Made by a program: the position numbers and the translations under genes
From: a virus
IMG/VR virus record: IMGVR_UViG_3300037086_000398
Span: 68,362-114,133 of that record
Length of the DNA stretch: 45,772 nt
Reading direction: 5' to 3' (one strand)
The notes under the pieces: model-generated
What the model saw: only the letters and a program-made list of their open reading frames with translations
Database searches by the model: none
What the model was told of the DNA's origin: nothing
Part shown: in pieces, positions 1-36,890 of the stretch
Position numbering within the stretch: the first letter of the stretch is position 1
Layout of the letters: the number at the start of each line of letters is the position of its first letter

Positions 1-176
1 CCCATCTCATAAATCTCAAAACGAATTTTTGTGAGAAAAAGAAAAAGCTTGTGAATAGAGTGCCTTGCAAACATTGGAATCATGAATCTTTTGAGCTTAC
101 GAAAATTCAGAGAACATTAGTTGATCTTCATGATGCAATTGTGGAGTGGGGGATGACTCTCAAAAATGAAACTTGA
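1..176 (+). CDS. 5'-truncated member of the small Cys-rich paralog family; window edge cuts the N-terminus
   Basis: Frame 0 reads ...NFCEKKKKLVNRVPCKHWNHESFELTKIQRTLVDLHDAIVEWGMTLKNET*. It has the family C-terminal C-x2-W motif (PCKHW) and overlaps the next paralog's start by 11 nt. Confidence 0.4.
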   Translation, partial: HLINLKTNFCEKKKKLVNRVPCKHWNHESFELTKIQRTLVDLHDAIVEWGMTLKNET

Positions 177-444
177 AACTGACGAATTGGCCAAAAACAT
201 TCTGCTCAATAAAGTAAATTGTGAATATTGCCAGAATCATCTGAGATGTGAATTTGAAGACAATGAGTGGTGGTGTACCATGTCGAAAGAAACACCTATT
301 GAAATCTGTGAACAGTGGGAACCTCCAAATCTGGTTAAGATAACTTGGACTATTATTGGTAGCGACACTGAAAAGAACATTAAAACAATGACAAAAATAC
401 ATTCTCTAAGAAAAAAATTGGAAGCGTTCAATGCCAGAGGATAG
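166..444 (+). CDS. small Cys-rich zinc-ribbon-like protein, paralog family member 1
   Basis: 92 aa. N-terminal DELAKNILLNKVNCEYC and C-terminal ICEQWE motifs shared with the 10 downstream ORFs. Confidence 0.6.
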   Translation: MKLETDELAKNILLNKVNCEYCQNHLRCEFEDNEWWCTMSKETPIEICEQWEPPNLVKITWTIIGSDTEKNIKTMTKIHSLRKKLEAFNARG

Positions 445-733
445 GGTCGCCAAGAATCTTCTTCTTGGCAACACATGTCTCAATTGTAATTTCTATTACA
501 TAAGTGGAAAATGTTCGAGAAACTCTGCAGAATATACATGCGAAAAATGGAAACACATGACTCGATCTGCAACAATCTTAAAGGATGCGGCGGCATTTCT
601 AAAACAAGAAATACAACAAAAAGCTGAAATTAGGGCTAGAAAAGAAAAATACGCCCAAATTGAAAAAGACGAACATATGAAAAAGGCGGCTGAGCTTTTT
701 GGAATGGATATCACTCAATGGATGAAAATGTAG
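431..733 (+). CDS. small Cys-rich protein, paralog 2
   Basis: 100 aa with DRVAKNLLLGNTCLNC...TCEKWKH. Its start overlaps the upstream stop, suggesting translational coupling. Confidence 0.65.
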   Translation: MPEDRVAKNLLLGNTCLNCNFYYISGKCSRNSAEYTCEKWKHMTRSATILKDAAAFLKQEIQQKAEIRARKEKYAQIEKDEHMKKAAELFGMDITQWMKM

Positions 734-1029
734 CAGCTAAAAATCTTCTTCTTGGGCATGGTTGTGACAATTGTCATTTTCATAAGTTTATTCCTAATTC
801 AACCGGTGATTGGTGCGACAATATGGCAAAAACACCCGTTGAAAAAACCTGTGAAAAATGGAAACAAACTGATCTAGAATATAGAATAGTCGAAATGGCG
901 GCCAATAGTATGAAGAAAGAAATTGATGACTACGTCAAGAGTATGATTTTGAAATCGGCTGGAATAGAAGATTTGGATTCTCTGAAAAATATCTATGGAG
1001 TTGATTGGAAATGGAACCCGACAAAATAG
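718..1029 (+). CDS. small Cys-rich protein, paralog 3
   Basis: 103 aa with ENVAAKNLLLGHGCDNC...TCEKWKQ. Confidence 0.65.
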   Translation: MDENVAAKNLLLGHGCDNCHFHKFIPNSTGDWCDNMAKTPVEKTCEKWKQTDLEYRIVEMAANSMKKEIDDYVKSMILKSAGIEDLDSLKNIYGVDWKWNPTK

Positions 1030-1223
1030 CTAAAAATCTTCTTCAAAGGAATGTTTGTGCGGGATGTTTGCACTTTTGGGCAAATCATCTTTTCAATGAA
1101 GCCTCAAACAATTCTGCACATGAGTGGTGCGAATATCATGTCGTTAGACCAGAGGAAGATACATGTGAAAATTGGCAATGGTCAATCGTGGCCACTTTTC
1201 CAAGAGGGCGAGAACACGGATGA
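1005..1223 (+). CDS. small Cys-rich protein, paralog 4
   Basis: 72 aa with DKIAKNLLQRNVCAGC...TCENWQW. Shares an ATGA stop/start overlap with the next gene. Confidence 0.6.
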   Translation: MEMEPDKIAKNLLQRNVCAGCLHFWANHLFNEASNNSAHEWCEYHVVRPEEDTCENWQWSIVATFPRGREHG

Positions 1224-1513
1224 GCCTTGATCTCATAGCTAAAAGACTTCTGCTAGGCCACAACTGTAGAACATGCATGCATTCTTTTTATGAAATCCCA
1301 TCAAAAGATGGGATGGTGTATAAACAACATCTCTATAGAATGGATAGAAATCAAAGAGCTATAAAGGATGAAAGTCTTTTCTGCAACTATTCATTTTACA
1401 TGTCGGCTTCCTCTATTACTCCAGGATTACGGACACCCATAGGACAGATAGAAGCAGAAAGAATCCCTCCAGAAAGGACGTGTGTTCATTGGGAAGGAAT
1501 AGAAAAGACATAG
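1220..1513 (+). CDS. small Cys-rich protein, paralog 5
   Basis: Start chosen at M of MSLDLIAKRLLLGHNCRTC (ATG at 1220, overlapping the upstream TGA); ends ...IPPERTCVHWEG. The ORF track's alternative start is 1172. Confidence 0.6.
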   Translation: MSLDLIAKRLLLGHNCRTCMHSFYEIPSKDGMVYKQHLYRMDRNQRAIKDESLFCNYSFYMSASSITPGLRTPIGQIEAERIPPERTCVHWEGIEKT

Positions 1514-1707
1514 ATTTTGAAGCGAAGAGCCTTCTTCTGGGCCACCCCGCGGACGCTTGTTGCTATAATTGCATCCATTGTCTTCGATTTAAAATTGACA
1601 ACACGATCAAACATCTCTATGTTTGTGACGAAATGCAATCATTCAGCAATCACATTCGTCACCCTAAGAAATTTTTTTGTAAGCTATGGTCTCCTGATCA
1701 TGAGTAA
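1480..1707 (+). CDS. small Cys-rich protein, paralog 6
   Basis: 75 aa with DIDFEAKSLLLGHPADACCYNC...FCKLWSP. Overlaps the upstream gene by 34 nt in another frame. Confidence 0.5.
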   Translation: MCSLGRNRKDIDFEAKSLLLGHPADACCYNCIHCLRFKIDNTIKHLYVCDEMQSFSNHIRHPKKFFCKLWSPDHE

Positions 1708-1712
1708 TATAA

Positions 1713-2021
1713 ATGGAAATCAATAAAGCTGCGAAATATGCGCTGCTCGGTCGGTATTGTAGAAATTGCAGTCACGTATATCGCTTAGTGCCGCTCAAAA
1801 ATGGAAAAACTATAAGGCAAGACAAAACACATTGGGTATCTTTCGACAAAATAAAAGATGATGAGCTCTATTGTGCGCTCAATTCAGATATGTTGTCACC
1901 ACCTGGTCGAGCACCACGCCGGACGGCTCGAATGCATAAACAACAAATAACACCAGAGCAGATGTTGCCCAAGAGGATTCCACCAGAAAATATATGCAGA
2001 TTTTGGGATGGAGCAGAATAA
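1713..2021 (+). CDS. small Cys-rich protein, paralog 7
   Basis: 102 aa with INKAAKYALLGRYCRNC...DDELYC...IPPENICRFWDG. Confidence 0.6.
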   Translation: MEINKAAKYALLGRYCRNCSHVYRLVPLKNGKTIRQDKTHWVSFDKIKDDELYCALNSDMLSPPGRAPRRTARMHKQQITPEQMLPKRIPPENICRFWDGAE

Positions 2022-2036
2022 GCGCATATTTTATTC

Positions 2037-2324
2037 TTGATGGATACGGATAGAATTGCTAAAAGACTCCTCTTGGATCACGTTTGCAAAACGTGCAAGT
2101 TCTCATTCTATTTGATTCCTAGGCCAGATGGAAGAATCACCCATCGATATCTCTCTGGTGTTGCCACGTGGATGATCAATGAATATAGAAGAGATGAGCT
2201 CTACTGTGATCGAAGATGTGATAATTTCTTGGATCCTGTGCGTGAATCTAGATTCCATATGAAAGGTAGTATTCCGCCAAAAAAGATTCCAAAAGAGGAG
2301 ACTTGTGGCAAATGGGAACAATAA
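2037..2324 (+). CDS. small Cys-rich protein, paralog 8
   Basis: 95 aa with DRIAKRLLLDHVCKTC...RDELYC...IPKEETCGKWEQ. Confidence 0.6.
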   Translation: MMDTDRIAKRLLLDHVCKTCKFSFYLIPRPDGRITHRYLSGVATWMINEYRRDELYCDRRCDNFLDPVRESRFHMKGSIPPKKIPKEETCGKWEQ

Positions 2325-2500
2325 GCAAGGACGAGTTGGCTAAAGCTCTTCTAGAAGGACACACTTGTGAAACATGCACGAATGAGTGTGGATGGAATTG
2401 TTGTTTTGATTCTTCTAACGTTGGTCGACCATTACCACCAGAGCGTTGGTGTAATCATTGGGAAAAAGACATAGAATGGACAGGAAGGGTAGAGCACTAA
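2303..2500 (+). CDS. small Cys-rich protein, paralog 9
   Basis: 65 aa with DELAKALLEGHTCETC...WCNHWEK. TAATG overlap with the next gene. Confidence 0.55.
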   Translation: MWQMGTISKDELAKALLEGHTCETCTNECGWNCCFDSSNVGRPLPPERWCNHWEKDIEWTGRVEH

Positions 2501-2811
2501 TGGATGCTGACAGAATCGCTAAAAATCTTCTTGAAAACAAGCTCTGTACTAATTGCAAATACAACATGAAAAATGGCTGCTCTATCGATTGCAAAAATCT
2601 AGTGGCTACGACCATAGAAAACATTCCTCCATTTCCTTCAGAAGGAACTTGTGAAAGATGGGAAGAAAAGGTCCAAATAGTTGAAACCATAATGCAGGTC
2701 ATAAAAGCCTTTGGTGGTGGATTGGGTACATCTTCAGCTGGATTTGGAGAAATAACTAGAGTCGCCAAGATTTTAGAAGAGTATGATAAGTCTCTCAAAA
2801 AAAATGAGTGA
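2500..2811 (+). CDS. small Cys-rich protein, paralog 10
   Basis: Start at MDADRIAKNLLENKLCTNC (ATG 2500); ends ...FPSEGTCERWEE plus a Gly-rich tail. Confidence 0.6.
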   Translation: MDADRIAKNLLENKLCTNCKYNMKNGCSIDCKNLVATTIENIPPFPSEGTCERWEEKVQIVETIMQVIKAFGGGLGTSSAGFGEITRVAKILEEYDKSLKKNE

Positions 2812-3079
2812 GGATATTCAAGCTAAGCGCTTATTACTGGCGCAAAGTTGTTCAAATTGTTTTATCAGACAGTGTTTGCCACTGTCAGCCTCATGTCCAT
2901 TAGATAACAATAATGAGTTTTGGTGCAAGGAGTGGGCAGCAACCAACGTCTTTGGTGACGAGCTATATGCACCACGGATCACGACTATCAAACATCTTGT
3001 TGATGTCCTCAACATGATACATTCTTACAAAGGATTGAAACCTTTCACAAAAGAAACAATACTGAGACCACCTGGATAA
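2804..3079 (+). CDS. small Cys-rich protein, paralog 11
   Basis: Start at MSEDIQAKRLLLAQSCSNC (ATG 2804, overlapping the upstream stop); contains ...FWCKEWAA. Confidence 0.6.
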   Translation: MSEDIQAKRLLLAQSCSNCFIRQCLPLSASCPLDNNNEFWCKEWAATNVFGDELYAPRITTIKHLVDVLNMIHSYKGLKPFTKETILRPPG

Positions 3080-3130
3080 AATTAATGCTCTATCACGATG
3101 AGTGTTATTTCTGCAAGTTATCTAAGTAAG

Positions 3131-3162
3131 ATAATTACCTTGCATACTTATAGGTAATTATT
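3131..3162. repeat. perfect 10-bp inverted repeat (ATAATTACCT / AGGTAATTAT) with a 12-nt spacer, in the 324-nt intergenic region
   Basis: Read directly from the sequence. Candidate operator or RNA hairpin between the paralog array and the GC-rich gene. Confidence 0.4.
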
Positions 3163-3403
3163 GAGAATTTTACAGGGATCACTATCCAAAAGCCAAGGAC
3201 AGAACCCTGGGCTTTCTAGAAGCTTGCTGCTGGCAACAACAGTCAAATAATTAGATTATTAAGATGTTTTCACGGTGGCTGGTGAAGACAATTTTGAGAG
3301 ATTTTTATAGAGTTGTGCGAAAAGATTCTTCAAAAGGAGGTGCTTTATGAAGAGCGAGGGAGGGTTTTCCTAGTGATTAGTTAATGATCAAGGAGGACCC
3401 GTA

Positions 3404-4282
3404 ATGGATTCACAAGTTCTCGAGCGCAAGTTCGAGCAAATGGGAGCGAAGATCGAAGCATTCAAGGACCTCGCCACTCGCGAAAGAATTGAAAGAATGC
3501 GCCGAATCGCTCAGAACCCCCGTGCCTTTGTCCGCAATCGCGGAGCAGGCACTCCACCAAGACTTGACGTTGTGAAGAGAGGCAAGGACGAAGTTTTCGT
3601 CGTTGATACTTTCGATCAGAACATCGACGTTCAAGTTATCGACGTTCGCCCAGACGACAGACATCTTCTTCTCATGTTCAAGAGATTGGACGGAAAGAGA
3701 GAAGTTTCTAAGTTTTTGTGCGGACATGACGAAAGACACTGGTTCGTCGCAGCTGTTCCAGAATCTGCCGGTGCTAAGAATGTAAAAGACGCGATGGAGG
3801 CTCTCAAGCCCGATCTCGTCAAGATTTCTTTGAAAAGAGCTGGCGTAAAGACCAAGCACCACAACAAGAGACACAATAAGGGATTTGTGAGACAGGGAGA
3901 ATGGTTTTTCATTCCAGCCCCAGATCTCCAGATTGATGAAAGATTCATTCACAAGAATGAACCAATCTCTCGCGGAAGAGGTGCAAAGCCACATCGCTGC
4001 CAGGAGCTCTATAGAACTGGCGGAGAGCAGGTTTGGGTCAACCACCAGCACGCACCAAACGGATTCACCGAGACACAGTACAAGGCTTTCATTATAGCGC
4101 ATCCTGAAGAAGGACCACGCCGCGGGGCATGGACTGTAATGATGAGAGGAGCTACCGCTTTTGTGCGTGGTTGGGTGAGACACCCCGATCACAGCACCAT
4201 CCACCTCGATGGTTGGCACAGAGTGGAAATGAACCTCGAAAACAAGGCCAAGGCCATGGAATTTGTCGCATTTCTCGATTAA
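3404..4282 (+). CDS. hypothetical basic, His/Arg-rich protein of foreign (GC-rich) origin; moron-like
   Basis: 292-aa ORF with a strong SD (AAGGAGG) 8 nt upstream. GC is about 50% against a much more AT-rich background, with codons such as CGC, GAC, CTC, GCC. Followed by a canonical terminator. The antisense 300-aa ORF is a GC artefact. Confidence 0.75.
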   Translation: MDSQVLERKFEQMGAKIEAFKDLATRERIERMRRIAQNPRAFVRNRGAGTPPRLDVVKRGKDEVFVVDTFDQNIDVQVIDVRPDDRHLLLMFKRLDGKREVSKFLCGHDERHWFVAAVPESAGAKNVKDAMEALKPDLVKISLKRAGVKTKHHNKRHNKGFVRQGEWFFIPAPDLQIDERFIHKNEPISRGRGAKPHRCQELYRTGGEQVWVNHQHAPNGFTETQYKAFIIAHPEEGPRRGAWTVMMRGATAFVRGWVRHPDHSTIHLDGWHRVEMNLENKAKAMEFVAFLD

Positions 4283-4286
4283 GATC

Positions 4287-4310
4287 AAGCCCCCGAAAGG
4301 GGGCTTTTTC
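4287..4310 (+). terminator. rho-independent terminator (GCCCCC-GAAA-GGGGGC + TTTTT)
   Basis: Perfect GC stem, GAAA tetraloop and T-tract immediately after the 3404-4282 stop. Confidence 0.7.
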
Positions 4311-4353
4311 ATTTACGGGCCAAAAGTTATAAGATAGTTTAGAGGAGGCTCGT

Positions 4354-4650
4354 ATGCATGACGCAAAGAAAGAAAGCAAAAAGTTTATTAATCTGACATG
4401 GCAACAGATTGTTTACGCTGTTGTTGGCTTAATACTTATTGGAGCAGTTTCTTTTGTTGGATCTAGTCTTAATAGAGCTCTTGAGAAGGTTAACCAACAC
4501 GATATTGATCTTGTCAGAGTGAATTCAACTCTTGGTAATACCACGGCCACTGTCAGCATCTCTGTCAAAGATTTGGAAACTCTCAAAGGAGATGTTATCA
4601 AACTTCAACAAAGAGTAGATGATCTTCTTCCAAAGGGAGGTCCAAGATGA
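4354..4650 (+). CDS. small membrane protein: N-terminal TM helix plus predicted coiled coil
   Basis: 98 aa. Hydrophobic stretch IVYAVVGLILIGAVSFVG, then a heptad-like region. SD GAGGAGG upstream. Confidence 0.6.
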   Translation: MHDAKKESKKFINLTWQQIVYAVVGLILIGAVSFVGSSLNRALEKVNQHDIDLVRVNSTLGNTTATVSISVKDLETLKGDVIKLQQRVDDLLPKGGPR

Positions 4651-5042
4651 AAAAATTATTGATAGTATTGTTGGCTTTTCTCTTGTTCACACCATTACTG
4701 CAAGCAGAACAACAATTGGTACAATTTTTGAATGATTTCGAACTAAAGGCTGAATTTGATGGGTCCATTCTCACCATAAATAACACTGAAAAAGTTGCCG
4801 ATTTGAATGATGCTGCATATGAGGTGAGCTATATTCTTCGACTAATCGACACATATGTCCAGAGAAATCCTAAGTTTTCAATCAAAGAAATAAAAGAATT
4901 TCACTATATGCTTGGAAAGTTTAAGCTCGTATTGACAGCCAACCAATTGGATCAGATCTACAATGGTCCTCCGACGAGATCCGGCAACTTTAATTTAATC
5001 AATCAACTTCTCTTGAAACAATACAACAAGCAAATGAAGTAG
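4647..5042 (+). CDS. secreted protein with an SPase-I type signal peptide
   Basis: 131 aa. N-terminus MKKLLIVLLAFLLFTPLLQA|EQQ with no lipobox Cys. ATGA overlap with the upstream gene. Confidence 0.6.
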   Translation: MKKLLIVLLAFLLFTPLLQAEQQLVQFLNDFELKAEFDGSILTINNTEKVADLNDAAYEVSYILRLIDTYVQRNPKFSIKEIKEFHYMLGKFKLVLTANQLDQIYNGPPTRSGNFNLINQLLLKQYNKQMK

Positions 5043-5047
5043 CCAGA

Positions 5048-5071
5048 GGGGCATCTAAAAATGCCCCTTTT
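5048..5071 (+). terminator. rho-independent terminator (GGGGCAT-loop-ATGCCCC + TTTT)
   Basis: Hairpin and T-tract directly after the 5042 stop. Confidence 0.55.
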
Positions 5072-5130
5072 CATCCTACGGGCATAGAAAGATAAGATAA
5101 ATGTAGCATTCTCATATACAGGAAGTCACT

Positions 5131-8010
5131 ATGTCCATAGTAAGAAACTACTTTGATTTGATAACTGCTTTGAGTAGTCTAGACACATCAATCACGATAG
5201 CCAACGACATTGCCTTACAGGCACCGGTGACCGTAGGATACCAGTGTTCTATTCTGAGCTCCGCCGCTACCAAACCAAAAATTAGTTTAAATTATTCAGC
5301 GCCACAAATTATTAGCAATATAGGATACCAAGACTTTGGTCTAACAGGAATACTTTCAGCTACTTCAACAAATCTACAAATAGGAACCCTTTATTTCTTC
5401 AAAGTAAATGGAGTTGAATATAATCTTTCTGTTTCTTCTCAATTAACATATGGAGATCTTCATGTTGCTGTTGGAATGGCTATGACTAGGCCAATGCCAG
5501 TAGAATCAGCCGCTGCTTCGGAGGGAACTGAAGGTGGGGAGACGGTGGCTGAACCAGTTGTATTGGAAAGAAAACGTGTTTTTGGTGACGACTATTCTAT
5601 TGACATCGTATCTGGAGACTTAAGAGTTTCATCACTAAGATCCACTGCAGTTTTGGTTTCATCTGGTACCACTACTGAAATTAGTGGAAGTTCTGTCCCT
5701 TGTGTTGATTTATTGGAGGGGTTGGGCGCAATTGTAAAAACCAGTAGTCTTAAACCACATGTGCTTCCAAATCCGCCAACTCCTGGATACAACGATCTAG
5801 GTTTGATTGGTTTGACCGTATCAACATCAACCGGATTGATTCCTGGTACAATATATGTGCTCAGAGTTAATGCAACTGAATTTGATATTGCGGTTGTTTC
5901 TCAAATGACTTATGGTGATTTGATTACTGCTCTGAGCAAGGCAGCCTCTATAGATAGAAAAACTACATTTGCTGCCAATTTTTCTGCTGACATTGTTTTT
6001 GGAGACTTGCGAATTTGGTCACCTACTGGCATTGGAGTTCTTGTTTCTCTGGCTGAAATATCAGAAGATGAACCATCTTATGTTGATTTGCTAAGGGGTT
6101 TGGGAGTCATTGTTGAGTCAGGTAGTCTTCCACTACCGGTGGACCCAACAACTCCAATTCCAGTAAATCCTGCTGCCTTTACAATTGCAGCATCTTCTGT
6201 TAGATTAATGAATCTCGAATTTTCATATCCAGGAGGATCTGCAATTAGATTCGATGGCACGATTGGTGGGCTGGTTGCTCCATCACTTCTTGATATTATT
6301 ACTTCAGGATCTGCTCGAGGATTTGAACTCATCAATACCAGAAATGGAACTTTTGAAAGTTGTGTTTCTCATAATTGTGGTTTGGGATTTGATTTAGTTG
6401 GTTCATCTTCAACCGTTGGAAATATCTTAGGATATCAAAATTTTGGCCTTACTGGCATTCTATCTACCACTCCAACACATTTAGTAACACAGAGAGCTTA
6501 TTTCTTCAAAGTTAACGGAACAGAATATCAACTCATATTATCTCAATCATTCGTAATAGCAGATACATTCGCGACTTTGACAAGCATGATAAACAACAAC
6601 TCGCTTTCAACAGATGGTAAGTTTGCTTTTGATGAAGACTTTTCTATAGATATTGTTTCTGGAGATCTTCAAGTTTCTTCATTGAAGGGAACTACTGTTT
6701 CTATTTCTTCTGGAACTACGACATCTATAGTTGAAAGCACGATGGTTTGTCTTGATCTATTAGTTAGTTTACATGTATCATTACCTCTGCCAGCGACCGT
6801 TGCACCAAGCGATGATGGTGGCAGAAAAGATCGCACCCATCACAATAATTTCTTGGGTTGCATAGCCTATAATGATGCACCAAACGGTATAGGAATTAAG
6901 TATACTAACGCCAATAACAACAAATTTGAAGAAAGCAAAGTATACAACAATGTATATGGAATTGTTCAGGAAGCCTTAAGCTATTCAAATAGCTTCAGAG
7001 GTGAAATCTATGGAAACTCAAATTATGGATTGATGAATAGCGACAGAACTTCTGGGCTTCATGTTTTTGATGCTTCTTCTTGTTGGTGGGGAGATCCTCT
7101 GGGACCAAGTGGGGCTGGACAGGGAGATGGTGATAAGACGAGTCTTGGAGTCATTTTTGATAATTGGCGAAGAAATGGAACAGAACCAACTCTTTCATAT
7201 CCTGGAACAAGAGAATGGATATGGGCAATGTTGGGTTATCCTGTTGTAAAAGTAGAATTGACTGATGACCAAGTCACAAACTGTATTGATATGGCCATCA
7301 AGAAGTTTATGTATTACATGACTCCAGATCCATACTATTACTATTTTGACATCGCCGCCGGACAACACGAAGTGAAGCTGCCTGTTGACATTACTAAAGA
7401 CAAAGTCATTCAAGTGGTGTATCAGCCAACTTCCGATATTTTTGCGCAATTAGCTTCTTCTGGAGAATCATTCTTTTTGACTTACTATATGCAATATACA
7501 GGTGGAGCCTTTTTAGCAGACTTCTATATCGCCATGGCCTATAAGGAAACTTTCGAAAGAACATTGGGTATTCAACCTTCATATGAATACCTAACTCATA
7601 ATGAAATGCCAGATGATCCTGATCTTATAATGTTGGATGTTAATGGGCAACCAATTCTAGATCCAAATAATCCTAATATGTTTATGTTGAGAGCTCCACA
7701 GATGCGACAATATATCCGACTTTATCCTGCTCCAACTTCTTATTCGATAAGAATGGCAATCAAAGTCAGTAGAACTCCTTCAGAAGAAGAGATCGATGAA
7801 GAAGGTTTGGTTTGGATTAGACGATATGCTTTGGCCTGGTCAAAGGAAATGCTTGGAAGAATCAGAGGAAAGTTCGCCTCTTTGCCTGGTCCTACTGGAG
7901 AGATTACGCTCAATGCTGATTCTCTCATAACTGAAGCCGCAAGTGAGAGAGAAGAGTTGTTAAAAGAGTTGATCAGTTTGGGAGAACCCCTTACTTTCAC
8001 AACGGGATAG
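5131..8010 (+). CDS. large virion structural protein (fibre/neck/baseplate-like) with a roughly 130-190-aa domain repeated three times
   Basis: 959 aa. Three internal repeats carry YQDFGLTGILSxTST...FFKVNGxEY...TYGDL and DFSIDIVSGDL...SSGTTT...DLL motifs. Lies in the structural region upstream of the sheath. C-terminal part YPVVKVELTDDQV... not identified. Confidence 0.65.
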   Translation: MSIVRNYFDLITALSSLDTSITIANDIALQAPVTVGYQCSILSSAATKPKISLNYSAPQIISNIGYQDFGLTGILSATSTNLQIGTLYFFKVNGVEYNLSVSSQLTYGDLHVAVGMAMTRPMPVESAAASEGTEGGETVAEPVVLERKRVFGDDYSIDIVSGDLRVSSLRSTAVLVSSGTTTEISGSSVPCVDLLEGLGAIVKTSSLKPHVLPNPPTPGYNDLGLIGLTVSTSTGLIPGTIYVLRVNATEFDIAVVSQMTYGDLITALSKAASIDRKTTFAANFSADIVFGDLRIWSPTGIGVLVSLAEISEDEPSYVDLLRGLGVIVESGSLPLPVDPTTPIPVNPAAFTIAASSVRLMNLEFSYPGGSAIRFDGTIGGLVAPSLLDIITSGSARGFELINTRNGTFESCVSHNCGLGFDLVGSSSTVGNILGYQNFGLTGILSTTPTHLVTQRAYFFKVNGTEYQLILSQSFVIADTFATLTSMINNNSLSTDGKFAFDEDFSIDIVSGDLQVSSLKGTTVSISSGTTTSIVESTMVCLDLLVSLHVSLPLPATVAPSDDGGRKDRTHHNNFLGCIAYNDAPNGIGIKYTNANNNKFEESKVYNNVYGIVQEALSYSNSFRGEIYGNSNYGLMNSDRTSGLHVFDASSCWWGDPLGPSGAGQGDGDKTSLGVIFDNWRRNGTEPTLSYPGTREWIWAMLGYPVVKVELTDDQVTNCIDMAIKKFMYYMTPDPYYYYFDIAAGQHEVKLPVDITKDKVIQVVYQPTSDIFAQLASSGESFFLTYYMQYTGGAFLADFYIAMAYKETFERTLGIQPSYEYLTHNEMPDDPDLIMLDVNGQPILDPNNPNMFMLRAPQMRQYIRLYPAPTSYSIRMAIKVSRTPSEEEIDEEGLVWIRRYALAWSKEMLGRIRGKFASLPGPTGEITLNADSLITEAASEREELLKELISLGEPLTFTTG

Positions 8011-9593: not shown

Positions 9594-9898
9594 TGGAACT
9601 AAAAAAACTAGCTGAAAACTATCAGCCAATGCACAAGAAGCACTACACTCAAATTGGTGGGGCTCTCAAGAAATATGGAATAGTGGATTATCAAGTGAAA
9701 GCAGAGGAGCTTGATCCAGACAAGAAAGAATGGATTACTAAAATCATCATAGAGGATGAACTTGATAGTGATCAAATTGCCAAATTGCTTACAGCATTTG
9801 AGAGATTGGATATAAGCAAAAAGAACATTGATGTGAGGCAGTATCCAAACAAATCCGTCACTGTTTTTGAAATCACTGGTCAGTATAACTTAATGTAG
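9593..9898 (+). CDS. hypothetical protein
   Basis: 101 aa; TAATG overlap with the upstream gene. Confidence 0.5.
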   Translation: MELKKLAENYQPMHKKHYTQIGGALKKYGIVDYQVKAEELDPDKKEWITKIIIEDELDSDQIAKLLTAFERLDISKKNIDVRQYPNKSVTVFEITGQYNLM

Positions 9899-9906
9899 GC
9901 AATGAT

Positions 9907-10593
9907 ATGAAATTTGAAAAAGCTCTACAAAAGAAAAAAAAGAAAGATGGAATAATCAGGCGAACAATGCCTATTGTTGTCAAGGAAGATTCCTCTATGG
10001 GGCAATCTGATGTTGCTTATTCTGCACTAACTGCAGGATTGATGAATGTTTCGAAAGATAGATCTGATTATGATTATAAGAAAAAGAAGAGAAGCAGCAA
10101 AAAAGATAAGTCGATAATTAGATCGGTAAAAGAAGATTGTGATACTGATACTCCAACTGCCGATCCTCTCAAGAATGCTAAGCCTGATGTTGTATGGGGC
10201 AAAGACATGAAGAAGAGAAAAAAGAAGGTGCTCAAGAGAGTAGAAGAAGCTTCGTATGATTCTCCAGTATCGGCCTATTCTAGAGAAGATGAGATTTCAC
10301 GTGGATATAAGCCTGGTGTTAGGACAGATGATGAGGTGAGAAAACAACAGAAAAGGCTTGGTAAAGCAGCCGAAGACACTCGTATGAAGAAAACAAAAGT
10401 GAGGCTTATTAAGAAGGTAGTAGAACAGATGGCTCCTCCGGCCCCTGGTGCCTTGGCGACTCCTCCAGGAACAACTCGTGGTGGAGGAATGTCGGCGGCC
10501 GATGTGGTTGGCATGCCAAGAGATTTGGGAAAAGATGCTCTTAAGAAAAAAAAGAAGAAGATAATTATACGTAAGACTAGTTCCAAAATATGA
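9907..10593 (+). CDS. highly basic Lys-rich protein (internal virion or DNA-binding protein candidate)
   Basis: 228 aa with KKKKK runs at both ends. Lies in the structural region. The antisense ORF 10275-10736 is rejected. Confidence 0.55.
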   Translation: MKFEKALQKKKKKDGIIRRTMPIVVKEDSSMGQSDVAYSALTAGLMNVSKDRSDYDYKKKKRSSKKDKSIIRSVKEDCDTDTPTADPLKNAKPDVVWGKDMKKRKKKVLKRVEEASYDSPVSAYSREDEISRGYKPGVRTDDEVRKQQKRLGKAAEDTRMKKTKVRLIKKVVEQMAPPAPGALATPPGTTRGGGMSAADVVGMPRDLGKDALKKKKKKIIIRKTSSKI

Positions 10594-10617
10594 AAAATTT
10601 GATTCAAGGAGAATGCA

Positions 10618-10818
10618 ATGAATCTTAAAGATTTAAATGACAAGTTGGTATATGAACTCGAGCTCGAGGAAGCAAAGAAAAAGGGAAAAAAGTCGGCTGC
10701 TTCTATGGATGAACCAGTTTCTGGAGCTGGAGACAAGATGGTCGCTCCGGGCGTTCTGAAGAAGGGTGGACAGCTCTATCCACCTAGTAAGGTCGCATAT
10801 TCTAACCTTGTAAAGTAA
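10618..10818 (+). CDS. hypothetical small protein
   Basis: 66 aa; RBS AAGGAG upstream. Confidence 0.45.
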   Translation: MNLKDLNDKLVYELELEEAKKKGKKSAASMDEPVSGAGDKMVAPGVLKKGGQLYPPSKVAYSNLVK

Positions 10819-13151: not shown

Positions 13152-15938
13152 ATGGCCAATTTTTTGATAAGCCCAGGAGTCATTACTAATGAGATCGATC
13201 AGTCTCAATATGCTGCGACTACACCTGGAACTGGAAATGTAGCGGCTTTGATTGGTTACGCCGAAAAGGGGCCATTTGACCCTACCATTGTCACAAGCCA
13301 ACAAGACTTTAATCTGACATTTGGAAAGACGCTCGCGCAGGTTCCGTATCTTGCTCAAGCTGCCTACAAGTATTTTAACCAGGGAAGTCAGCTTTTAGTT
13401 GTAAGAGCTGGTGATAATAGAGACCCAACTGCATATCCATCAGCTGCTCAATATGCCAGCAAAAGAATTAGAATTCAACCAAGCACAGTAGCTACGGTTG
13501 GGAAACAATCTTTCAAAGCAACAGACGGTGTTGCTGCTGGAAGTTTTGCACCGAACAGCACATATGGATTTAATCTGCTAGCAGATTTTAGAGCATTCAA
13601 AGCCCCTAAAATTGTAGAGAGTTGGACCGGATTGGCTGTCGAAATTGCAAATAATATAGGAGCTCCTGCACCAGCCACAACTATTGATGCTCCATTGTTC
13701 AAGATCGCGGTCGGGGCGAATGCAGATACTGCATTCACAGCTAATTTTAAAAGAAATCAAGATGCAGTTAATGGAACATCAGAGTATTATGGAGCAAGTG
13801 GAACGAGAAATGGTAGTGTTTTGGGAAGTGCTGCTTTAGTAACACTTCGACAATACAGAGATGGTGATACCTATGCCAACGTCGATACTGATCTGATGAC
13901 AATAGCTGGAACATATGGAGCTGCAGTTCTGGCATCCTCTGAGTTTGCTGGACATGATTGGAGTGCAAATCAGGCTGGATTTGTTTTGGACGGGGACACC
14001 ATTACTCTAAACGCTAACTGCGCAACAGTGGTCGCTGCCATTTCTCACATAACGGCCCAAATAGCAGATTCTAATTATGTTGTATTTGAGATGAAGAAGG
14101 CAAGCGGACATTCAAAAATATGTATCAGAAGAACTGCTGGAACTGGAACTACCCTAACCCTAGGAGCACCAACAACCGGTGGAAATGCACTGCCTACTCT
14201 TGGATGGACTGTTGGAACTTATAATGATTCAGATTGGATTTATGGAACTTGGCACGCTGAGTATCCACACGCAATTGCTCCATCGACTGCAAATCCATCT
14301 ACATTTGATGGTATTTTCCTTTTCAATAAAACAGCAACTACACCTAATGTAAAATCATTCCAAGATGTTGGAACAGTAGTAATCACTTCTCCTACATCAG
14401 GAATATGGACATTGGCTAGTATGAAAATTGCAATTCAAGCAGCGATCGATAATCTCTATAGCATATATCATTTTCCAAAATCAAGAGCTATAGTTGATTC
14501 AGGTGCTGGAAAAATTACCATTGATTCTGCTGGTCCCGCCTCTTCAACATTTACTTCTATGGTGAACATTTCGGCACCTAGTTCTGGAAATTCACTAGTA
14601 AGTCTGTTGGGTGGAACAGAGGCTGCCGAAGATGGTATACCTCCAGGAGGAATTGGGGAAGGAATCGTTAATCTAAGAGCTAAAGAAAAAGGTTCATATG
14701 GGAATAATCTCATCTTCAGAACAGAAACTAAAGTAATTAACGTTGGCCAAACTCAGATAACTAATGAAAATGTGTATGTGTTGTGGAATGGTCAACAGGT
14801 TTCCGCCTATACGAAGGTAAATTGGATTGATCCATCTGCTACCAACTATATTAATACAGTAATGGCGAATGACGGTTATATAGTTCTTGATGCAGAAGAT
14901 GAAGATGGAAATAGCACCATGGTTAAGCTTCCAAATGGAGATTGGGTTCTTGGTACAGTTGATATTCCAAATGGAGTTGATTCTGCCAGCGTATTGATTG
15001 CTGATTTCTCTGTTGGAACGAATGGTTGGGTTGAAGATTCAAACAACGTTATCACGACAATGAGCGCCGACTATGCCAATGCTCTTACTAAGATTGCAAA
15101 CCCAGAGGTTTATGAATACAATCTAGTTTCTGCTCCTGGTGGAGCTGATCCAATTGTTCAAAATGCTGTAGCAGCTCTAGTTGAATCTAGACATGATGTA
15201 TTTGGTGTTGTTGATGCTGCTCCATTTGGACTTGGACTTGGAATCGCTAGCAGAAATTCCGACATTACTATGGTTAATGATGCTTGCAGTACTTTGACCT
15301 CTTCGTATGTCGGAGCATTCTGGCCATGGCTATATGATTATGATTCAGACAATAAGCAATATGTTTGGTTACCACCTTCAATCTATGCACTAGAGGCAAT
15401 GGTTTATACCGACAATATTGCAGATCCTTGGTATGCTCCTGCTGGAACAACTAGAGGAAAAGTTGCTGCAATCAATATTGAGTATTCACCAGACAGAACC
15501 GAAAGAGACATTCTCTACGGTGGAACGGCAATAGTCAATTCACTTGTAAAATTTGTCAATGAGGGTATCGTAATTTGGGGACAGAAAACAACTCAAAGAA
15601 CTGATACTGCTACCAATAGAATTAATGTAAGAAGGTTGTTGATTTACGCTGAAAAGTTGATCGCCAAGATGGCTCGTGGCTTCTTGTTCGAACCAGATGA
15701 CTCAACCAATTGGGCAGCATTTGCTAGACAGGCCAACGCCATTCTTGAACCAATTAGACAGCGAAGAGGGTTGACTCAATATACAGTAGTTTGCGACTCG
15801 AGCACAAATACCGCCTCCACGATCAACCAGAATTTGATGGTGGGCAAGATCTTCTTGCAGCCAACCAAAACCACTGAATTTGTTGAGGTCGATTTCACAA
15901 TCAATGCTGCTACTGGTGAGACAACTGTAAGTGGATAA
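13152..15938 (+). CDS. contractile tail sheath protein (T4 gp18-like)
   Basis: 928 aa. N-terminus MANFLISPGVITNEIDQS...GNVAALIGYAEKGPFDPTIVTSQQDFNLTFG and C-terminal ...VKFVNEGIVIWGQKTT are typical of myovirus sheath proteins. Strong SD AGGAGG. Confidence 0.85.
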   Translation: MANFLISPGVITNEIDQSQYAATTPGTGNVAALIGYAEKGPFDPTIVTSQQDFNLTFGKTLAQVPYLAQAAYKYFNQGSQLLVVRAGDNRDPTAYPSAAQYASKRIRIQPSTVATVGKQSFKATDGVAAGSFAPNSTYGFNLLADFRAFKAPKIVESWTGLAVEIANNIGAPAPATTIDAPLFKIAVGANADTAFTANFKRNQDAVNGTSEYYGASGTRNGSVLGSAALVTLRQYRDGDTYANVDTDLMTIAGTYGAAVLASSEFAGHDWSANQAGFVLDGDTITLNANCATVVAAISHITAQIADSNYVVFEMKKASGHSKICIRRTAGTGTTLTLGAPTTGGNALPTLGWTVGTYNDSDWIYGTWHAEYPHAIAPSTANPSTFDGIFLFNKTATTPNVKSFQDVGTVVITSPTSGIWTLASMKIAIQAAIDNLYSIYHFPKSRAIVDSGAGKITIDSAGPASSTFTSMVNISAPSSGNSLVSLLGGTEAAEDGIPPGGIGEGIVNLRAKEKGSYGNNLIFRTETKVINVGQTQITNENVYVLWNGQQVSAYTKVNWIDPSATNYINTVMANDGYIVLDAEDEDGNSTMVKLPNGDWVLGTVDIPNGVDSASVLIADFSVGTNGWVEDSNNVITTMSADYANALTKIANPEVYEYNLVSAPGGADPIVQNAVAALVESRHDVFGVVDAAPFGLGLGIASRNSDITMVNDACSTLTSSYVGAFWPWLYDYDSDNKQYVWLPPSIYALEAMVYTDNIADPWYAPAGTTRGKVAAINIEYSPDRTERDILYGGTAIVNSLVKFVNEGIVIWGQKTTQRTDTATNRINVRRLLIYAEKLIAKMARGFLFEPDDSTNWAAFARQANAILEPIRQRRGLTQYTVVCDSSTNTASTINQNLMVGKIFLQPTKTTEFVEVDFTINAATGETTVSG

Positions 15939-33383: not shown

Positions 33384-33725
33384 ATGGAATACTTGATCTT
33401 TAAGATTCATGACAAACAAATAGCTGCTCCAATTACAGATGATTATAATTTAGAAGCAACTCAAATAAACAAGATCTTGACAGTCCATAACAGAAAAAGC
33501 AAGCTTATCAAAGGTGCCATCAACTACAAGGGCAACCTTATTAATGTCATCGACATCAGTCCTCTATATAAAAAGAGATCTTTAGGAAAGTTTGATGGAT
33601 TGATTTTTGTTAATAGGCGTGGATTGACTTTTGCAATAAAGTTCGAAGGATTTTTTCAAAGAAAGGATTCTATTGAGAAGGGGATGGAGAAGATTGACAT
33701 CAAGAAGATTATTAAGATGCTCTAG
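33384..33725 (+). CDS. hypothetical protein
   Basis: 113 aa. Its stop shares a CTAG with the stop of the convergent minus-strand gene. Confidence 0.45.
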   Translation: MEYLIFKIHDKQIAAPITDDYNLEATQINKILTVHNRKSKLIKGAINYKGNLINVIDISPLYKKRSLGKFDGLIFVNRRGLTFAIKFEGFFQRKDSIEKGMEKIDIKKIIKML

Positions 33726-35047
33726 GCCGTTCTAAATGAAAGCTTTTTATTGAGTGTGTTAACTGATGTGCTTGGTGAATCAAATTCAAATTTTGTGGTT
33801 GAGAATAGTTTTACTACGAATCTTAATCTTTCTTTTTCTTCATAAACATGTATTTGTTGAACATTGATCTTGCTTAAGAATTTGCTGAGAGCGTCCAACA
33901 AATCCTCCCGCCTATTCAAATACTTTACCAAACCGTTGATAAATGGACCAATCAAGTATCCTGCACCACCTTGAGCTTGTTCACTCTTTGGATCATATTT
34001 GATTTCTTTTGCTCCGGTTGAGATCTTGTCATAAAACTTTCTCAAGCTCAGTTCAGCCTTTCCTTGTTGATAGAGCATGTTGAGAGCATAAGAGATTTGT
34101 TGTTTGATTTCTCCAGGAGATAGATCTAAATCGATTTCACCAGTTATTTTCTGAAGTTCTTTAAGACCATTCCACTCTGGGAACATGTTGGCGATTTTCA
34201 AATAACCATTCAACATTTCTTCTTCTTTGACTGTTTTCAAAAGCCTTACCAATATTGGCGATTTGGCCTTTTTGATGAAATCGTCACCAGTGACCGTAGC
34301 TAAAGATCCAGCCGCACCACTCCCTGCTTTCATAGAAATAGGATCATCACCAGAGAAAAAATCAACAAGAGGATTGTTTGATTCTAGAGGGAATCTAATG
34401 GGCTTACCTTCTTTTCTAGAAAAGAGCATTGCCCCAAGAATTTCACCAAAATCGTTTAAAATAGCATTTTTGCTGCTGATTGAAACATCAACATCAAATT
34501 CTTCATCTTTATTCACATAGACAACATTGCCTGCATCTATTAGTTTCCCATATCTGACGGTGTTCAAAAGAAGAGTGAGATATTTCTTTATTTTTGGATC
34601 GTCTTCTTTTTTATCGATCTGTGGAACTATTTTCTTGTAGAAATCTTTGGGTGTCGCAAAATCTTGACCTGCTAAATTAAGTGCTTTGGGAGTGAATTTC
34701 TTTATTCCAGATTTTCCAGAAATCATTGAATCGACTATATAAATGATTGCATCATCACTTTCTACTCGATAGGTTCTAAATTTGCCAGATCTGGAATCTT
34801 CGGTGCCAGGAGGATATGAAGTAATTTTAACCTTGATTCCGATAATCTTCGACATTTCCTTGAGCACTACTGTTGTCAAATTTTCGTTTCCACTGATGTC
34901 AAATCTTAGATCTGGTGATGGACCACCATGCCCGCCTGGGTTTTTTTGATTCTTTTTATATTGGAGAAGCTGTTCTTCAAACGACTTTCTCAGAGTTGAT
35001 TTAGGGCTACCAATAAGTTCTTCGAAGAGTCGCTCAAAGAAGTTCAT
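33722..35047 (-). CDS. hypothetical protein (distal gene of the minus-strand cassette)
   Basis: 441-aa ORF with no recognisable motif. Confidence 0.6.
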   Translation of the reverse strand: MNFFERLFEELIGSPKSTLRKSFEEQLLQYKKNQKNPGGHGGPSPDLRFDISGNENLTTVVLKEMSKIIGIKVKITSYPPGTEDSRSGKFRTYRVESDDAIIYIVDSMISGKSGIKKFTPKALNLAGQDFATPKDFYKKIVPQIDKKEDDPKIKKYLTLLLNTVRYGKLIDAGNVVYVNKDEEFDVDVSISSKNAILNDFGEILGAMLFSRKEGKPIRFPLESNNPLVDFFSGDDPISMKAGSGAAGSLATVTGDDFIKKAKSPILVRLLKTVKEEEMLNGYLKIANMFPEWNGLKELQKITGEIDLDLSPGEIKQQISYALNMLYQQGKAELSLRKFYDKISTGAKEIKYDPKSEQAQGGAGYLIGPFINGLVKYLNRREDLLDALSKFLSKINVQQIHVYEEKERLRFVVKLFSTTKFEFDSPSTSVNTLNKKLSFRTA

Positions 35048-35049
35048 GA

Positions 35050-35559
35050 TTATCCTATTGGGAAAGGTCCGTTTAGAATGTGTTTGGGCGCAAAATAGGT
35101 AGAAACATCTGAGAGAGACTGTACAGAATACTCTCCAACGGTTCCCTTAAAGGCTGATGATGTTAGAGCAGTAATATATTCCCAATCTGTTCCTTGAACA
35201 GTTCCAACACCAGTCTTTAAAATTAAAATCTTATCTCCAGTACCGGGTACGGCACCATTAACTGGATCTGGTCCAGTGTTTAGAATAATTACTTCCTTTT
35301 GCACAAAGAAGAACCCAGCCGCTTTTGCAGTCTTAAATGCGGCTTCATTTACAAAGCTATGGGCTCTCCAAACTTCACTTAAAGATGATATATGAAGGTC
35401 GAGATTAACTTCTGTATCAATTCCACGGGAAACACACTGTAACCAAAGGTTAGTGGCACCAGCGCTTCCTCCAACAGAAGCAGCCAAAACAACGTATTTT
35501 GGAGGTATATAGTTTGCGCTCGTCTCTGAATTGAGCATCACATATTCTACAATGTTCAT
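35050..35559 (-). CDS. hypothetical Gly/Thr/Val-rich protein
   Basis: 169-aa ORF, 2-nt gap to the downstream gene. Confidence 0.55.
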   Translation of the reverse strand: MNIVEYVMLNSETSANYIPPKYVVLAASVGGSAGATNLWLQCVSRGIDTEVNLDLHISSLSEVWRAHSFVNEAAFKTAKAAGFFFVQKEVIILNTGPDPVNGAVPGTGDKILILKTGVGTVQGTDWEYITALTSSAFKGTVGEYSVQSLSDVSTYFAPKHILNGPFPIG

Positions 35560-35576
35560 TAGAATCTCCTTTTGCT

Positions 35577-36890
35577 TTATCTTTTCAGAAGGTCGTCCAA
35601 AGATTCAGACAGTTTGCTCTTCTGCCAAAAGAAATTATTAAAATAAGAGATAGCTAGCTCTTTATAAGTCATATGATTGACGAGCTCCTTCTCGAATCTA
35701 TCAAGTTCATATAGTTGGGCCTGAATATTGTCTCTTTCAAAAGTTCTAGAGGGGGTTATTTCTCGAAGTTTTTCTCTTGCTCTTTCAACAGCGCGCTGTA
35801 TTTCACCTCTCTCTTTAACCTCAGCATTGATATCAAGCTTCTTGTTTCTAGCTAAAAGCAGCTTTGAAACGCTGCCATATTCAGCAACCTTTTTTTTATC
35901 TAGTTCTTTGAGCTTTACATTCAGAACCTTATTTCCAATCAAAGTTTTTAATTCACTTAATGGATCTGGTGGTCGATCTAAGACTTGATAGAAGCTACCA
36001 AACTTGCCAGTTATCTTGTAGGCCTTACCGTTGAAATGGACCACTAGTCCTTCAATTCCAAGATCATCTGATTTCAGGTCTGCCAATTTTGATTTCATGT
36101 TTCCAAGAATTTCAGATCCAACTTCAAGAGACACTTCTTTCATAAAGATTTTGAGTTCTTCTTGATTGCCACCAAAGTTAATAATTTGTGGTTTATATTT
36201 TTCCCAAACTTGTTTAGCTTTTTCATTTTTTGCTACGGTGGACGGCAAAACTGCGATGGGGCCCTTAAAAAGCCAGAATGTTTTCTCTGCAACTGGAAAT
36301 CTTCCAGAGACGTTGTAGTCAAAATGAGATTGCTGAGTGGCGACAGTACCAAACTTATTGGCCAATCGGGTGAGAATATTTTTAGCGTCTTTCTCATTAA
36401 GGTTGCGGGATCTTTCATATCCAGTGTCTTTTGTTCCACGAAGATCATGAAATACAATATAGTTCTTTTCTTTGCTATATTTGACCAAATTTGGCTGTTC
36501 ACCATAAATAATTTCAAGATTGATGAAGTTTTTTGGTTCGTCACTTATGTCCATAAGTTGATATGTTTGGCGTTCAGAGATTGATAGCTTCTCCATAGCC
36601 GACTTAATTGCATTAAATCCTGATCTAAAAGCTGGCAAGGCCGGATGTGACTTTCTGAACTTTTCAAATGGATTGTCGAATGGCTCTTCATTAGCATTTC
36701 TAGCAGCCACAACCTTTTTGTCTCTATTAAATCCTACGAAAAGATTGAGACCGTCCACCTTTTCTGTAGCCAGAAGTTTTCCGTCTAATAGAGAATCATA
36801 GAATTCAATAAATTGTTGAGGAGATAAATCATCTGAAGGGTGGGAAATATGGCCGGCAACCCCGCCCTCTGTTAGGAACTCAAAAGTCAT
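35577..36890 (-). CDS. ATP-dependent RNA ligase-like nucleotidyltransferase (Rnl family candidate)
   Basis: 437 aa. Ligase motif I TEKVDG (KxDG), motif IV EGLVVH and motif V KAYKITGK in the correct order and spacing. Confidence 0.55.
   Translation of the reverse strand: MTFEFLTEGGVAGHISHPSDDLSPQQFIEFYDSLLDGKLLATEKVDGLNLFVGFNRDKKVVAARNANEEPFDNPFEKFRKSHPALPAFRSGFNAIKSAMEKLSISERQTYQLMDISDEPKNFINLEIIYGEQPNLVKYSKEKNYIVFHDLRGTKDTGYERSRNLNEKDAKNILTRLANKFGTVATQQSHFDYNVSGRFPVAEKTFWLFKGPIAVLPSTVAKNEKAKQVWEKYKPQIINFGGNQEELKIFMKEVSLEVGSEILGNMKSKLADLKSDDLGIEGLVVHFNGKAYKITGKFGSFYQVLDRPPDPLSELKTLIGNKVLNVKLKELDKKKVAEYGSVSKLLLARNKKLDINAEVKERGEIQRAVERAREKLREITPSRTFERDNIQAQLYELDRFEKELVNHMTYKELAISYFNNFFWQKSKLSESLDDLLKR

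Follow-up and report, generated by a model that had tools for sequence, protein, structure and literature searches.

What do the products of a long row of small, related phage genes do, and which fold and cofactor do they share? The question is raised by positions 1-3079 of a 45,772-nucleotide stretch of viral DNA (IMG/VR virus record IMGVR_UViG_3300037086_000398, positions 68,362 to 114,133), which was analysed whole and is called the window here. An earlier note on this DNA had pointed out a tandem array of small open reading frames (ORFs) at this place, 11 complete and one cut by the edge, all on the plus strand, and the arrangement is as it was described. The best explanation that we can offer is that these genes encode miniature scaffolds with a metal site like that of high-potential iron-sulfur proteins (HiPIPs), which act as a fixed set of binders and not as electron carriers. 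We put the probability of this reading at roughly 0.45.

A four-cysteine domain in a tandem array

All members have in common one N-terminal domain of ~50 residues, which runs from Met through an AK-N-LL helix, a C-x2-C pair and a [W/Y/F]-C motif to P-x-E-x-T-C-x2-W. Its consensus is M-x-x-D-K-I-A-K-N-L-L-x-G-K-T-C-D-N-C-x-[Y/H/F] ... [W/Y/F]-C ... [L/I]-P-K-E-N-T-C-E-x-W. Both terminal modules by which the array had first been recognized are real and shared: alignment A1 has an invariant C and W and a near-invariant A, K, L, C and C. In alignments of 39, 25 and 150 sequences the four Cys are invariant, and the A, K, L and L of the N-terminal helix are near-invariant, as is the Trp 3 residues past the last Cys. 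Counted over 166 domains from 160 proteins, each of the four Cys is kept in 162-166 (98-100%); the A, K, L, L and W are kept in 147-160 of ~163 domains.

The region between the two modules had been called unalignable and hypervariable. It consists instead of two loops, of 5-25 and 8-36 residues, that flank a conserved third Cys. This residue, which mostly follows a W, Y or F, is found in every window copy (invariant in alignment A3 are A7, K8, L11, C16, C19, C33 and C45), and the separate 'third block' (DELYC, ESLFC) once assigned to some of the copies is this same Cys. The complete spacing is C-x2-C-x(5-25)-C-x(8-36)-C-x2-W, with medians of 12 and 14 for the second and third spacers. Beyond the domain, tails may be helical, Gly-rich or absent, may consist of a second domain copy or, in distant relatives, may carry fragments of a T4-type capsid protein. 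Of the proposal that a conserved scaffold presents a variable interface, the scaffold holds, and loops and tails are indeed specific to each paralogue, but the hypervariability has to be given up.

No DNA-level repeats exist beyond the coding motifs, which are 60-85% identical, and the Ala and Leu codons of the conserved AK-x-LL motif differ synonymously among copies. Conservation therefore acts on the protein. Paralogues within one phage are at most 54% identical (median 39%), and the isoelectric points of their cores range from 4.4 to 10.4.

The array continues beyond the window. Over 5,844 nucleotides a Logan contig (L001) is identical to the window, and it adds 4,629 nucleotides upstream. 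A hidden Markov model (HMM) made from the 12 window copies only finds 11 further copies in this added sequence, most of them with E = 1e-6 to 3e-11, and nothing else in the remaining 42 kb of the window. One of the upstream copies stands isolated, behind a gene for an HD-domain protein and two genes on the minus strand. The array is larger than the at least 12 copies first counted, with ~23 when the window and the overlapping contig are taken together.

A second array is present on a contig of 732,019 bp (L003; JGI 3300082197, Ga0673036_0000002), where ~25 copies in the same order as in the window phage are followed by the same 292-amino-acid gene and a T4 gp13-like neck gene. Copy number varies between these related phages, as the earlier note had thought possible, in that their copy sets differ in places. 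L003 alone has an extra copy at 9813-10004, and it carries two additional copies of a zinc-ribbon type that is described below. L001 4153-4338 has its orthologue at 7015-7170 of L003, where the family pattern is lost past the first Cys ('ECFNVVNML...'); this looks like a frameshifted, decaying copy.

The members in the window are listed below by their window positions. Small ORFs they are, but their lengths of 65-115 amino acids in the earlier note become 62-103, with true starts that are mostly ATG codons 4-8 codons 5' of the AK motif. Most junctions do overlap, by 1-19 nucleotides; the full range, however, extends from an 18-nucleotide gap to a 25-nucleotide overlap.

1..176 (ORF 3-176), plus strand: P0, cut family member, C-terminal part; the full gene is L001 4572-4805, 77 amino acids (= P0006)
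166..444, plus strand: P1, 92 amino acids, N-terminal four-Cys domain and helical tail; orthologue L003 7678-7950, 54% identity
431..733, plus strand: P2, 100 amino acids, domain and K/E-rich helical tail; orthologue L003 7937-8215, dN/dS 0.23
718..1029, plus strand: P3, 103 amino acids, domain and long C-terminal helix; orthologue P0007, dN/dS 0.19
1011..1223 (alternative start 1005), plus strand: P4, 70 amino acids, domain only, exactly four Cys
1220..1513 (alternative start 1172), plus strand: P5, 97 amino acids, long insertions in both inter-Cys loops; orthologue L003 8737-9030, dN/dS 0.19
1489..1707, plus strand: P6, ~72 amino acids, start uncertain (TTG 1489 or GTG 1480); without orthologue in the 732-kb phage
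1713..2021, plus strand: P7, 102 amino acids, domain with long loop insertions; orthologue L003 9031-9342, 61% identity
2040..2324 (alternative start 2037), plus strand: P8, 94 amino acids, domain with long loop insertions; orthologue L003 9359-9646, dN/dS 0.11
2312..2500 (alternative start 2303), plus strand: P9, 62 amino acids, domain only, extra Cys; orthologue L003 9634-9816, 68% identity
2500..2811 (alternative start 2458), plus strand: P10, 103 amino acids, domain with Gly-rich and helical tail (P0002, P0003, P0005); dN/dS 0.11
2804..3079 (alternative start 2783), plus strand: P11, 91 amino acids, last family member, domain and tail (P0008, P0013, P0018); orthologue 68% identity

P5, P7 and P8 group together, and their loop insertions can be aligned among the three.

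The metal centre

Which metal might the four Cys hold? When the A2 profile was compared with all PDB sequences, HiPIPs accounted for 8 of the 11 matches listed (1hpi, E = 0.008; 2hip, 0.019; 1pih, 0.02; 1hlq, 0.07). The best whole-sequence value in that search (E = 0.0021) belonged to a concatenated cytochrome c555 trimer in which no single stretch passes alone. A 150-sequence profile put HiPIPs first, again with 8 of 11 matches (3h31, E = 0.059). In the HiPIP alignments the four family Cys fall on the four [4Fe-4S] ligands, and the flanking Trp residues also match. Alignment with hhalign to five HiPIP segments copied from the PDB search output gave A2 a probability of 92.5% (P = 5e-7) and the wide family one of 90.4%; a run with six HiPIP sequences from outside that output had given 83-89%. 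When every column except the four Cys was shuffled (n = 100), scores averaged 9.8 +/- 2.2 with a maximum of 18, against 22.5 observed. This drop indicates that the likeness to HiPIPs exceeds Cys spacing and that non-Cys residues contribute to it.

The family shares several features with HiPIPs (Pfam PF01355), in which the four Cys follow the order C-x2-C-x~13-C-x~13-C, with 12-16 residues in the second spacer. Family medians of 12 and 14 compare with spacings of 13 and 13 in 1hpi. The surroundings of the ligands are also of HiPIP type, with an Asn within the first pair and an aromatic residue two past Cys2 (C-x-N-C-x-[Y/H/F]), an aromatic residue before Cys3 and a Trp 3 past Cys4, where the HiPIP pattern has W, Y or F. 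Both kinds of protein are small (50-85 amino acids) and have little regular secondary structure. Among Pfam entries, HIPIP is the only metal-domain family matched by several members (6 of 150), weakly and with a best E of 0.021. Judged by these patterns, the metal core resembles a HiPIP more than a zinc ribbon. A HiPIP-type [4Fe-4S] site is somewhat probable and a zinc site doubtful, and the family is best filed, provisionally, as a phage-only variant of the HiPIP-type four-Cys cluster domain.

Several points weigh against this assignment. The link is marginal: PDB E-values lie between 0.008 and 0.06, and the best Pfam HIPIP scores are ~13 bits (13.1 in one example) against a gathering cutoff of 22, so that the phage members remain below the gathering score. 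True HiPIPs are periplasmic substrates of twin-arginine translocation (Tat) and single-copy electron carriers. The phage domain has neither a Tat signal nor a periplasmic location; it starts at Met1, or in nearly all members 4-8 residues after that Met, and neither an RR motif nor an N-terminal extension precedes it. Its segment ahead of Cys1 is much shorter and carries an invariant AK-N-LL motif of its own, and the family is phage-only, multi-copy and equipped with variable tails. An AlphaFold model of P4, made with the 150-sequence alignment, is almost all coil and of moderate confidence (pLDDT, the predicted local distance difference test score, 75 overall, 89 over residues 1-20 and 79-86 over residues 41-60). 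Built without cofactor, it found no fold match in PDB or BFVD, which is unsurprising for a cofactor-dependent mini-protein modelled in this way. In an AlphaFold model of P3 a helix spans residues 46-81, and pLDDT is highest (block means 84-93) over residues 61-90.

Four outliers also belong among these points. One in L001 (2584-2763) and three in L003 (5199-5375, 5362-5556 and 5546-5749), which are the first genes of the main array, join the family's helix, as E-A-K-K-L-L-L, to a classical CxxC-x(21-27)-CxxC zinc ribbon. The helix can therefore partner a zinc site, and its recurrence there suggests that, as a motif, it may have a function of its own.

These outliers speak for an alternative that is possible, if in our judgement unlikely: that the domain is structural, a mini-fold akin to a zinc ribbon or treble clef in which the four Cys bind one Zn2+, and that the likeness to HiPIPs is a convergence of Cys patterns. 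Like rubredoxin-like and other C4 zinc ribbons, the family is a small four-Cys domain whose first pair is CxxC, and the fold search gave no confirmation of a HiPIP. Sporadic weak Pfam matches of single members, all with E > 0.01, point to zf-SAP30, DZR and Zn_ribbon_3. The 732-kb phage, moreover, has a cation-efflux (CDF) gene adjoining two copies. That a phage-encoded metal exporter stands next to metalloprotein genes could be mere coincidence or more than that.

The zinc-ribbon label of the earlier note is nevertheless unsupported for the main family, which is probably not a zinc ribbon. The second CxxC knuckle is absent, Cys3 and Cys4 being single ligands 8-36 residues apart, and the first knuckle lacks the CPxCG signature (no Pro at C1+1, no Gly at C2+1). 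Neither a consistent Pfam zinc-ribbon match nor a fold match was obtained. No zinc-binding protein appears among the listed PDB matches of either profile search, in each of which HiPIPs make up 8 of 11, and the strong contribution of non-Cys columns to the HiPIP match also speaks against convergence of the Cys pattern.

Proposed function and its alternatives

If the cluster is of HiPIP type, each gene would encode a small cytoplasmic metalloprotein whose first ~50 residues form one compact domain. The N-terminal amphipathic helix (D-x-I-A-K-N-L-L) would pack on the metal centre held by the four Cys. As ligand spacing and surroundings suggest, this domain would be a miniaturised HiPIP-type module that lacks a signal peptide and carries a cubane [4Fe-4S] cluster. 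Cluster and helix would together make a rigid mini-scaffold, on which the inter-Cys loops and optional tails would provide binding surfaces specific to each paralogue. Because loops and tails differ between paralogues and are kept between orthologues, each paralogue presumably binds its own partner. The 23-25 genes stand head to tail with short overlaps and no internal terminator, and so are probably expressed together as one battery. What the infected cell would receive is a fixed repertoire of binders, stabilised by metal clusters and deployed against host or phage proteins. We infer the iron-sulfur occupancy, the binder role, the co-transcription and the targets; an anti-defence or host-takeover role is suggested by analogy.

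Comparison of orthologues supports the fixed nature of this repertoire. Between the window phage and L003 there are 19-20 reciprocal best hits, which are collinear and share 38-78% amino-acid identity. Synonymous divergence (dS) is saturated (>1.2 or undefined), nonsynonymous divergence (dN) is 0.15-0.66, and dN/dS is 0.11-0.36 where it can be computed. Diversifying selection, which had been suspected in the middle region, finds no support in these ratios, which signify purifying selection. Identity between orthologues is 73% in the N-terminal module, 59% in loop 1, 75% at Cys3, 58% in loop 2, 69% in the C-terminal module and 56% in the tails. Neighbouring genes of the same two phages are 54-88% identical, so the array diverges no faster than its surroundings, is not evolving unusually fast, and a fast arms race is unsupported. 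The array is a stable battery of individually maintained specialists, not a hypervariable repertoire with fast turnover. In distant phages, copies are mostly closest to other copies of their own array (4/4, 3/4 and 2/3), which as a sequence pattern indicates independent expansions or concerted evolution.

As a working analogy, without membership, the WhiB-like (Wbl) proteins of actinobacteria and their phages come closest. These four-Cys [4Fe-4S] regulators of small size (~80-120 amino acids) bind a sigma factor and are not electron carriers, and phages encode copies of them. Their Cys order is C-x(n)-C-x2-C-x5-C, unlike that of the phage family, which also lacks the G[V/I]WGG turn, and no family member matched Pfam WhiB in any Pfam scan. 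Wbl genes are, furthermore, not arranged in arrays, and the phage considered here apparently belongs to another lineage and host range.

A different role would follow if the proteins were packaged internal proteins whose conserved extreme N-terminus works in the way of T4's capsid-targeting sequence. Like T4 IPI, they would then enter the prohead and be injected together with the DNA, to act against restriction or in host takeover. We consider this role improbable. The array abuts the neck/tail module of a phage with T4-type structural genes (gp13-like neck, tail sheath), the domain always starts at residue 1-8, and about one-third of members have L-L-E at the position of a T4-type L-x-E cleavage site. 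Like the internal proteins and the small ORFs of T4 hyperplastic regions, the family consists of co-oriented, phage-specific small genes of a T4-like myovirus that share an N-terminal motif and have a plausible anti-host role. There is no sequence similarity to either of these, however, and 23-25 homologous copies are far above any internal-protein locus. The shared motif would be part of a metal domain rather than a cleavable targeting peptide: the helix runs straight into the first two Cys ligands and, in the structure model, lies in the region of highest confidence, as would not be expected of a detachable peptide. Two-thirds of members have no Glu at the putative cleavage site, and the arrays of other phages lie among nucleotide-metabolism and accessory genes.

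The tails of some distant members, unexpectedly, lend this alternative a little weight. Pfam Gp23, the T4 major capsid protein, matches the C-terminal tail in 11 of 150 relatives. These matches exceed the gathering score over profile positions 6-44 in four proteins (P0030, P0101, P0107 and P0118, residues ~59-116) and over positions 128-185 in one (P0069, residues 47-106); locus L141 659-1111 belongs with these cases. None of the window copies has a Gp23-like tail. That the four-Cys domain is fused to short pieces of capsid protein may point to a connection with the assembly of capsids, or to decoys.

Genuine redox proteins, that is, soluble [4Fe-4S] carriers or sensors of redox state, O2 or nitric oxide that serve phage radical SAM enzymes or ribonucleotide reductase, are a still less probable identity for the family. 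The HiPIP-like ligand environment would suit such a role. A ribonucleotide reductase gene is present in the window, and upstream of the first L001 copies are a radical-SAM and an HD-domain gene (32-736 and 774-1328), the former 600 nucleotides from the first copy. But 23-25 divergent paralogues that differ in loops, tails and isoelectric point are not what one would expect of an electron shuttle. Neither L003 nor the other arrays have the radical-SAM gene in a syntenic position, and potentials in the HiPIP range could not reduce radical-SAM clusters. That the genes encode precursors of ribosomally synthesized and post-translationally modified peptides, with a conserved leader recognised by a maturase and a variable Cys-rich core (compare prochlorosins), is very improbable: tandem small genes, a conserved N-terminus, many Cys and the radical-SAM gene upstream in L001 fit, but conservation is as high in the C-terminal module and at the third Cys as it is at the N-terminus, products reach 100-190 amino acids, the tail of the one fully modelled member is predicted to be a confident helix, purifying selection covers the whole length between orthologues, and no maturase is conserved beside the arrays, the radical-SAM neighbour occurring in L001 only.

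With HiPIP-type scaffolds kept as the preferred reading, a broader and more tentative version can be stated. The HiPIP fold might have been turned into a cytoplasmic, phage-only family of mini [4Fe-4S] proteins that large phages expanded independently in multiple lineages, to as many as 25 tandem genes, into cluster-dependent binders. If this is true, it would be the first iron-sulfur-based effector family in viruses. Were the cluster needed for folding, activity could be coupled to the iron-sulfur supply or the redox/oxygen state of the host, and members fused to major capsid protein fragments may act on capsid assembly. Confirmation of the cluster would also mean that viruses have reused, as an intracellular scaffold, a fold otherwise known solely from electron carriers in the periplasm of phototrophs and chemolithotrophs, and would raise the question of how a phage provisions at least 20 iron-sulfur proteins in infection. 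The collinear battery of 23-25 genes in two very divergent huge phages makes a defined candidate set for host interaction.

Distribution and genomic surroundings

How widespread is the family? Among 1.84 billion representatives that were searched exhaustively with an HMM, 444 proteins reach E <= 1e-3 and 12 reach E <= 1e-10, the 444 being metagenomic representative clusters at 50% identity. Nearly all are 50-190 amino acids long with the domain at the N-terminus (start at residue 1-8), and seven contain two domains. A word-index protein search had yielded only 14-18 relatives, which is a strong underestimate compared to the exhaustive search. With the 11 further copies found by the HMM of the window copies and the 444 clusters, the similarity within the family is far beyond chance. 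That no named family covers these proteins, as the earlier note had supposed, agrees with scans against Pfam, PHROG, NCBIfam and PADLOC, in which neither the window members nor 150 family members fell into any family. The mostly unannotated content of jumbo and huge phages would gain a sizeable family, of at least 444 clusters at 50% identity, together with a concrete cofactor prediction.

Searches of 50,697 deposited phage genomes by blastn (window positions 1-8000) and tblastn (consensus and P10) returned no match. A degenerate DNA pattern for IAKNLL-x4-C-x2-C was used to search for further loci. In IMG/VR it matched 22 loci, mostly on contigs of 72-388 kb; at least six contigs have tandem groups of 3-9 copies, and a contig of 1.3 kb carries at least four further copies. 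In a genome collection of 185,579 species the pattern matched 115 times, close to the ~50 matches roughly estimated for chance, and the family HMM confirmed none of these matches. By this sequence distribution the family is probably restricted to phages, and it appears to belong to uncultured large phages. A literature search found nothing relevant on HiPIPs in phages or on Cys paralogues in huge phages.

The phage of the window belongs, as a distant member, to the T4-type myoviruses and has genes for a tail sheath, a gp13-like neck protein, SbcC, UvsX, a helicase and ribonucleotide reductase. Its tail sheath is closest to those of Flavobacterium phages (36% identity). Two features follow the array.

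3404..4282, plus strand: gene for 292 amino acids, not a family member; 88% identical to L003 11090-11968
4287-4306 (= L001 8916-8935), plus strand: intrinsic-terminator-like hairpin AAGCCCCCGAAAGGGGGCTT and T run, the first strong site past the array

No terminator-like site was found on the plus strand inside the array. Co-transcription of the array with translational coupling is a reasonable inference from the short overlaps and this lack of an internal terminator, and the 292-amino-acid gene may be the last of this unit. Nowhere in the 45.8-kb window does the T4 late promoter TATAAATA occur, sigma-70-like sites are at background level, and when intergenic regions were searched by k-mers no promoter motif was convincingly shared.

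The 292-amino-acid gene has no Pfam, PHROG, PDB or PADLOC match, and neither it nor the two upstream minus-strand genes have homologues beside the arrays of other phages. Fully antisense to it runs a minus-strand ORF of 300 amino acids at 3410-4312, and the 732-kb phage has this frame open as well. The sense gene contains no TTA or CTA codons and one TCA; for 292 codons, a complete lack of these three has a chance probability of ~1e-5. Substitutions between the window phage and the 732-kb phage are distributed 29/14/71 over the three codon positions of the sense gene, a pattern that marks the plus frame as the selected one. Just past the array, at 3085-3129, a 14-codon ORF MLYHDECYFCKLSK matches the C-terminal end of a 73-amino-acid ORF that lies past the L003 array (10589-10810), and is probably a deletion remnant.

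The upstream neighbours differ between the two phages, for in place of the radical-SAM and HD-domain genes of L001, L003 has the CDF gene (3137-3733) and a ClpB-like AAA+ gene (811-3033) ahead of its first copies. Arrays in other phages lie among genes for RtcB, a homing endonuclease, a DHH phosphoesterase, dCMP deaminase and UDP-glucose dehydrogenase. The arrays are surrounded by accessory regions and do not share a fixed operon with any partner enzyme.

Elsewhere in the window, the sole block of minus-strand genes (33722-38258) contains ORFs of 441, 169, 437, 253 and 208 amino acids, the two largest without a PHROG match. The gp13-like neck protein (5131-8010; 959 amino acids, with a beta-helix segment) and the tail sheath (13152-15938; 928 amino acids) appear to be unusually long for T4-type phages. 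L003 carries T4-type structural genes along its 732 kb and, if it is one phage genome, is to our knowledge near the largest reported. The window contig, at 114 kb, may be a fragment of a similarly huge genome.

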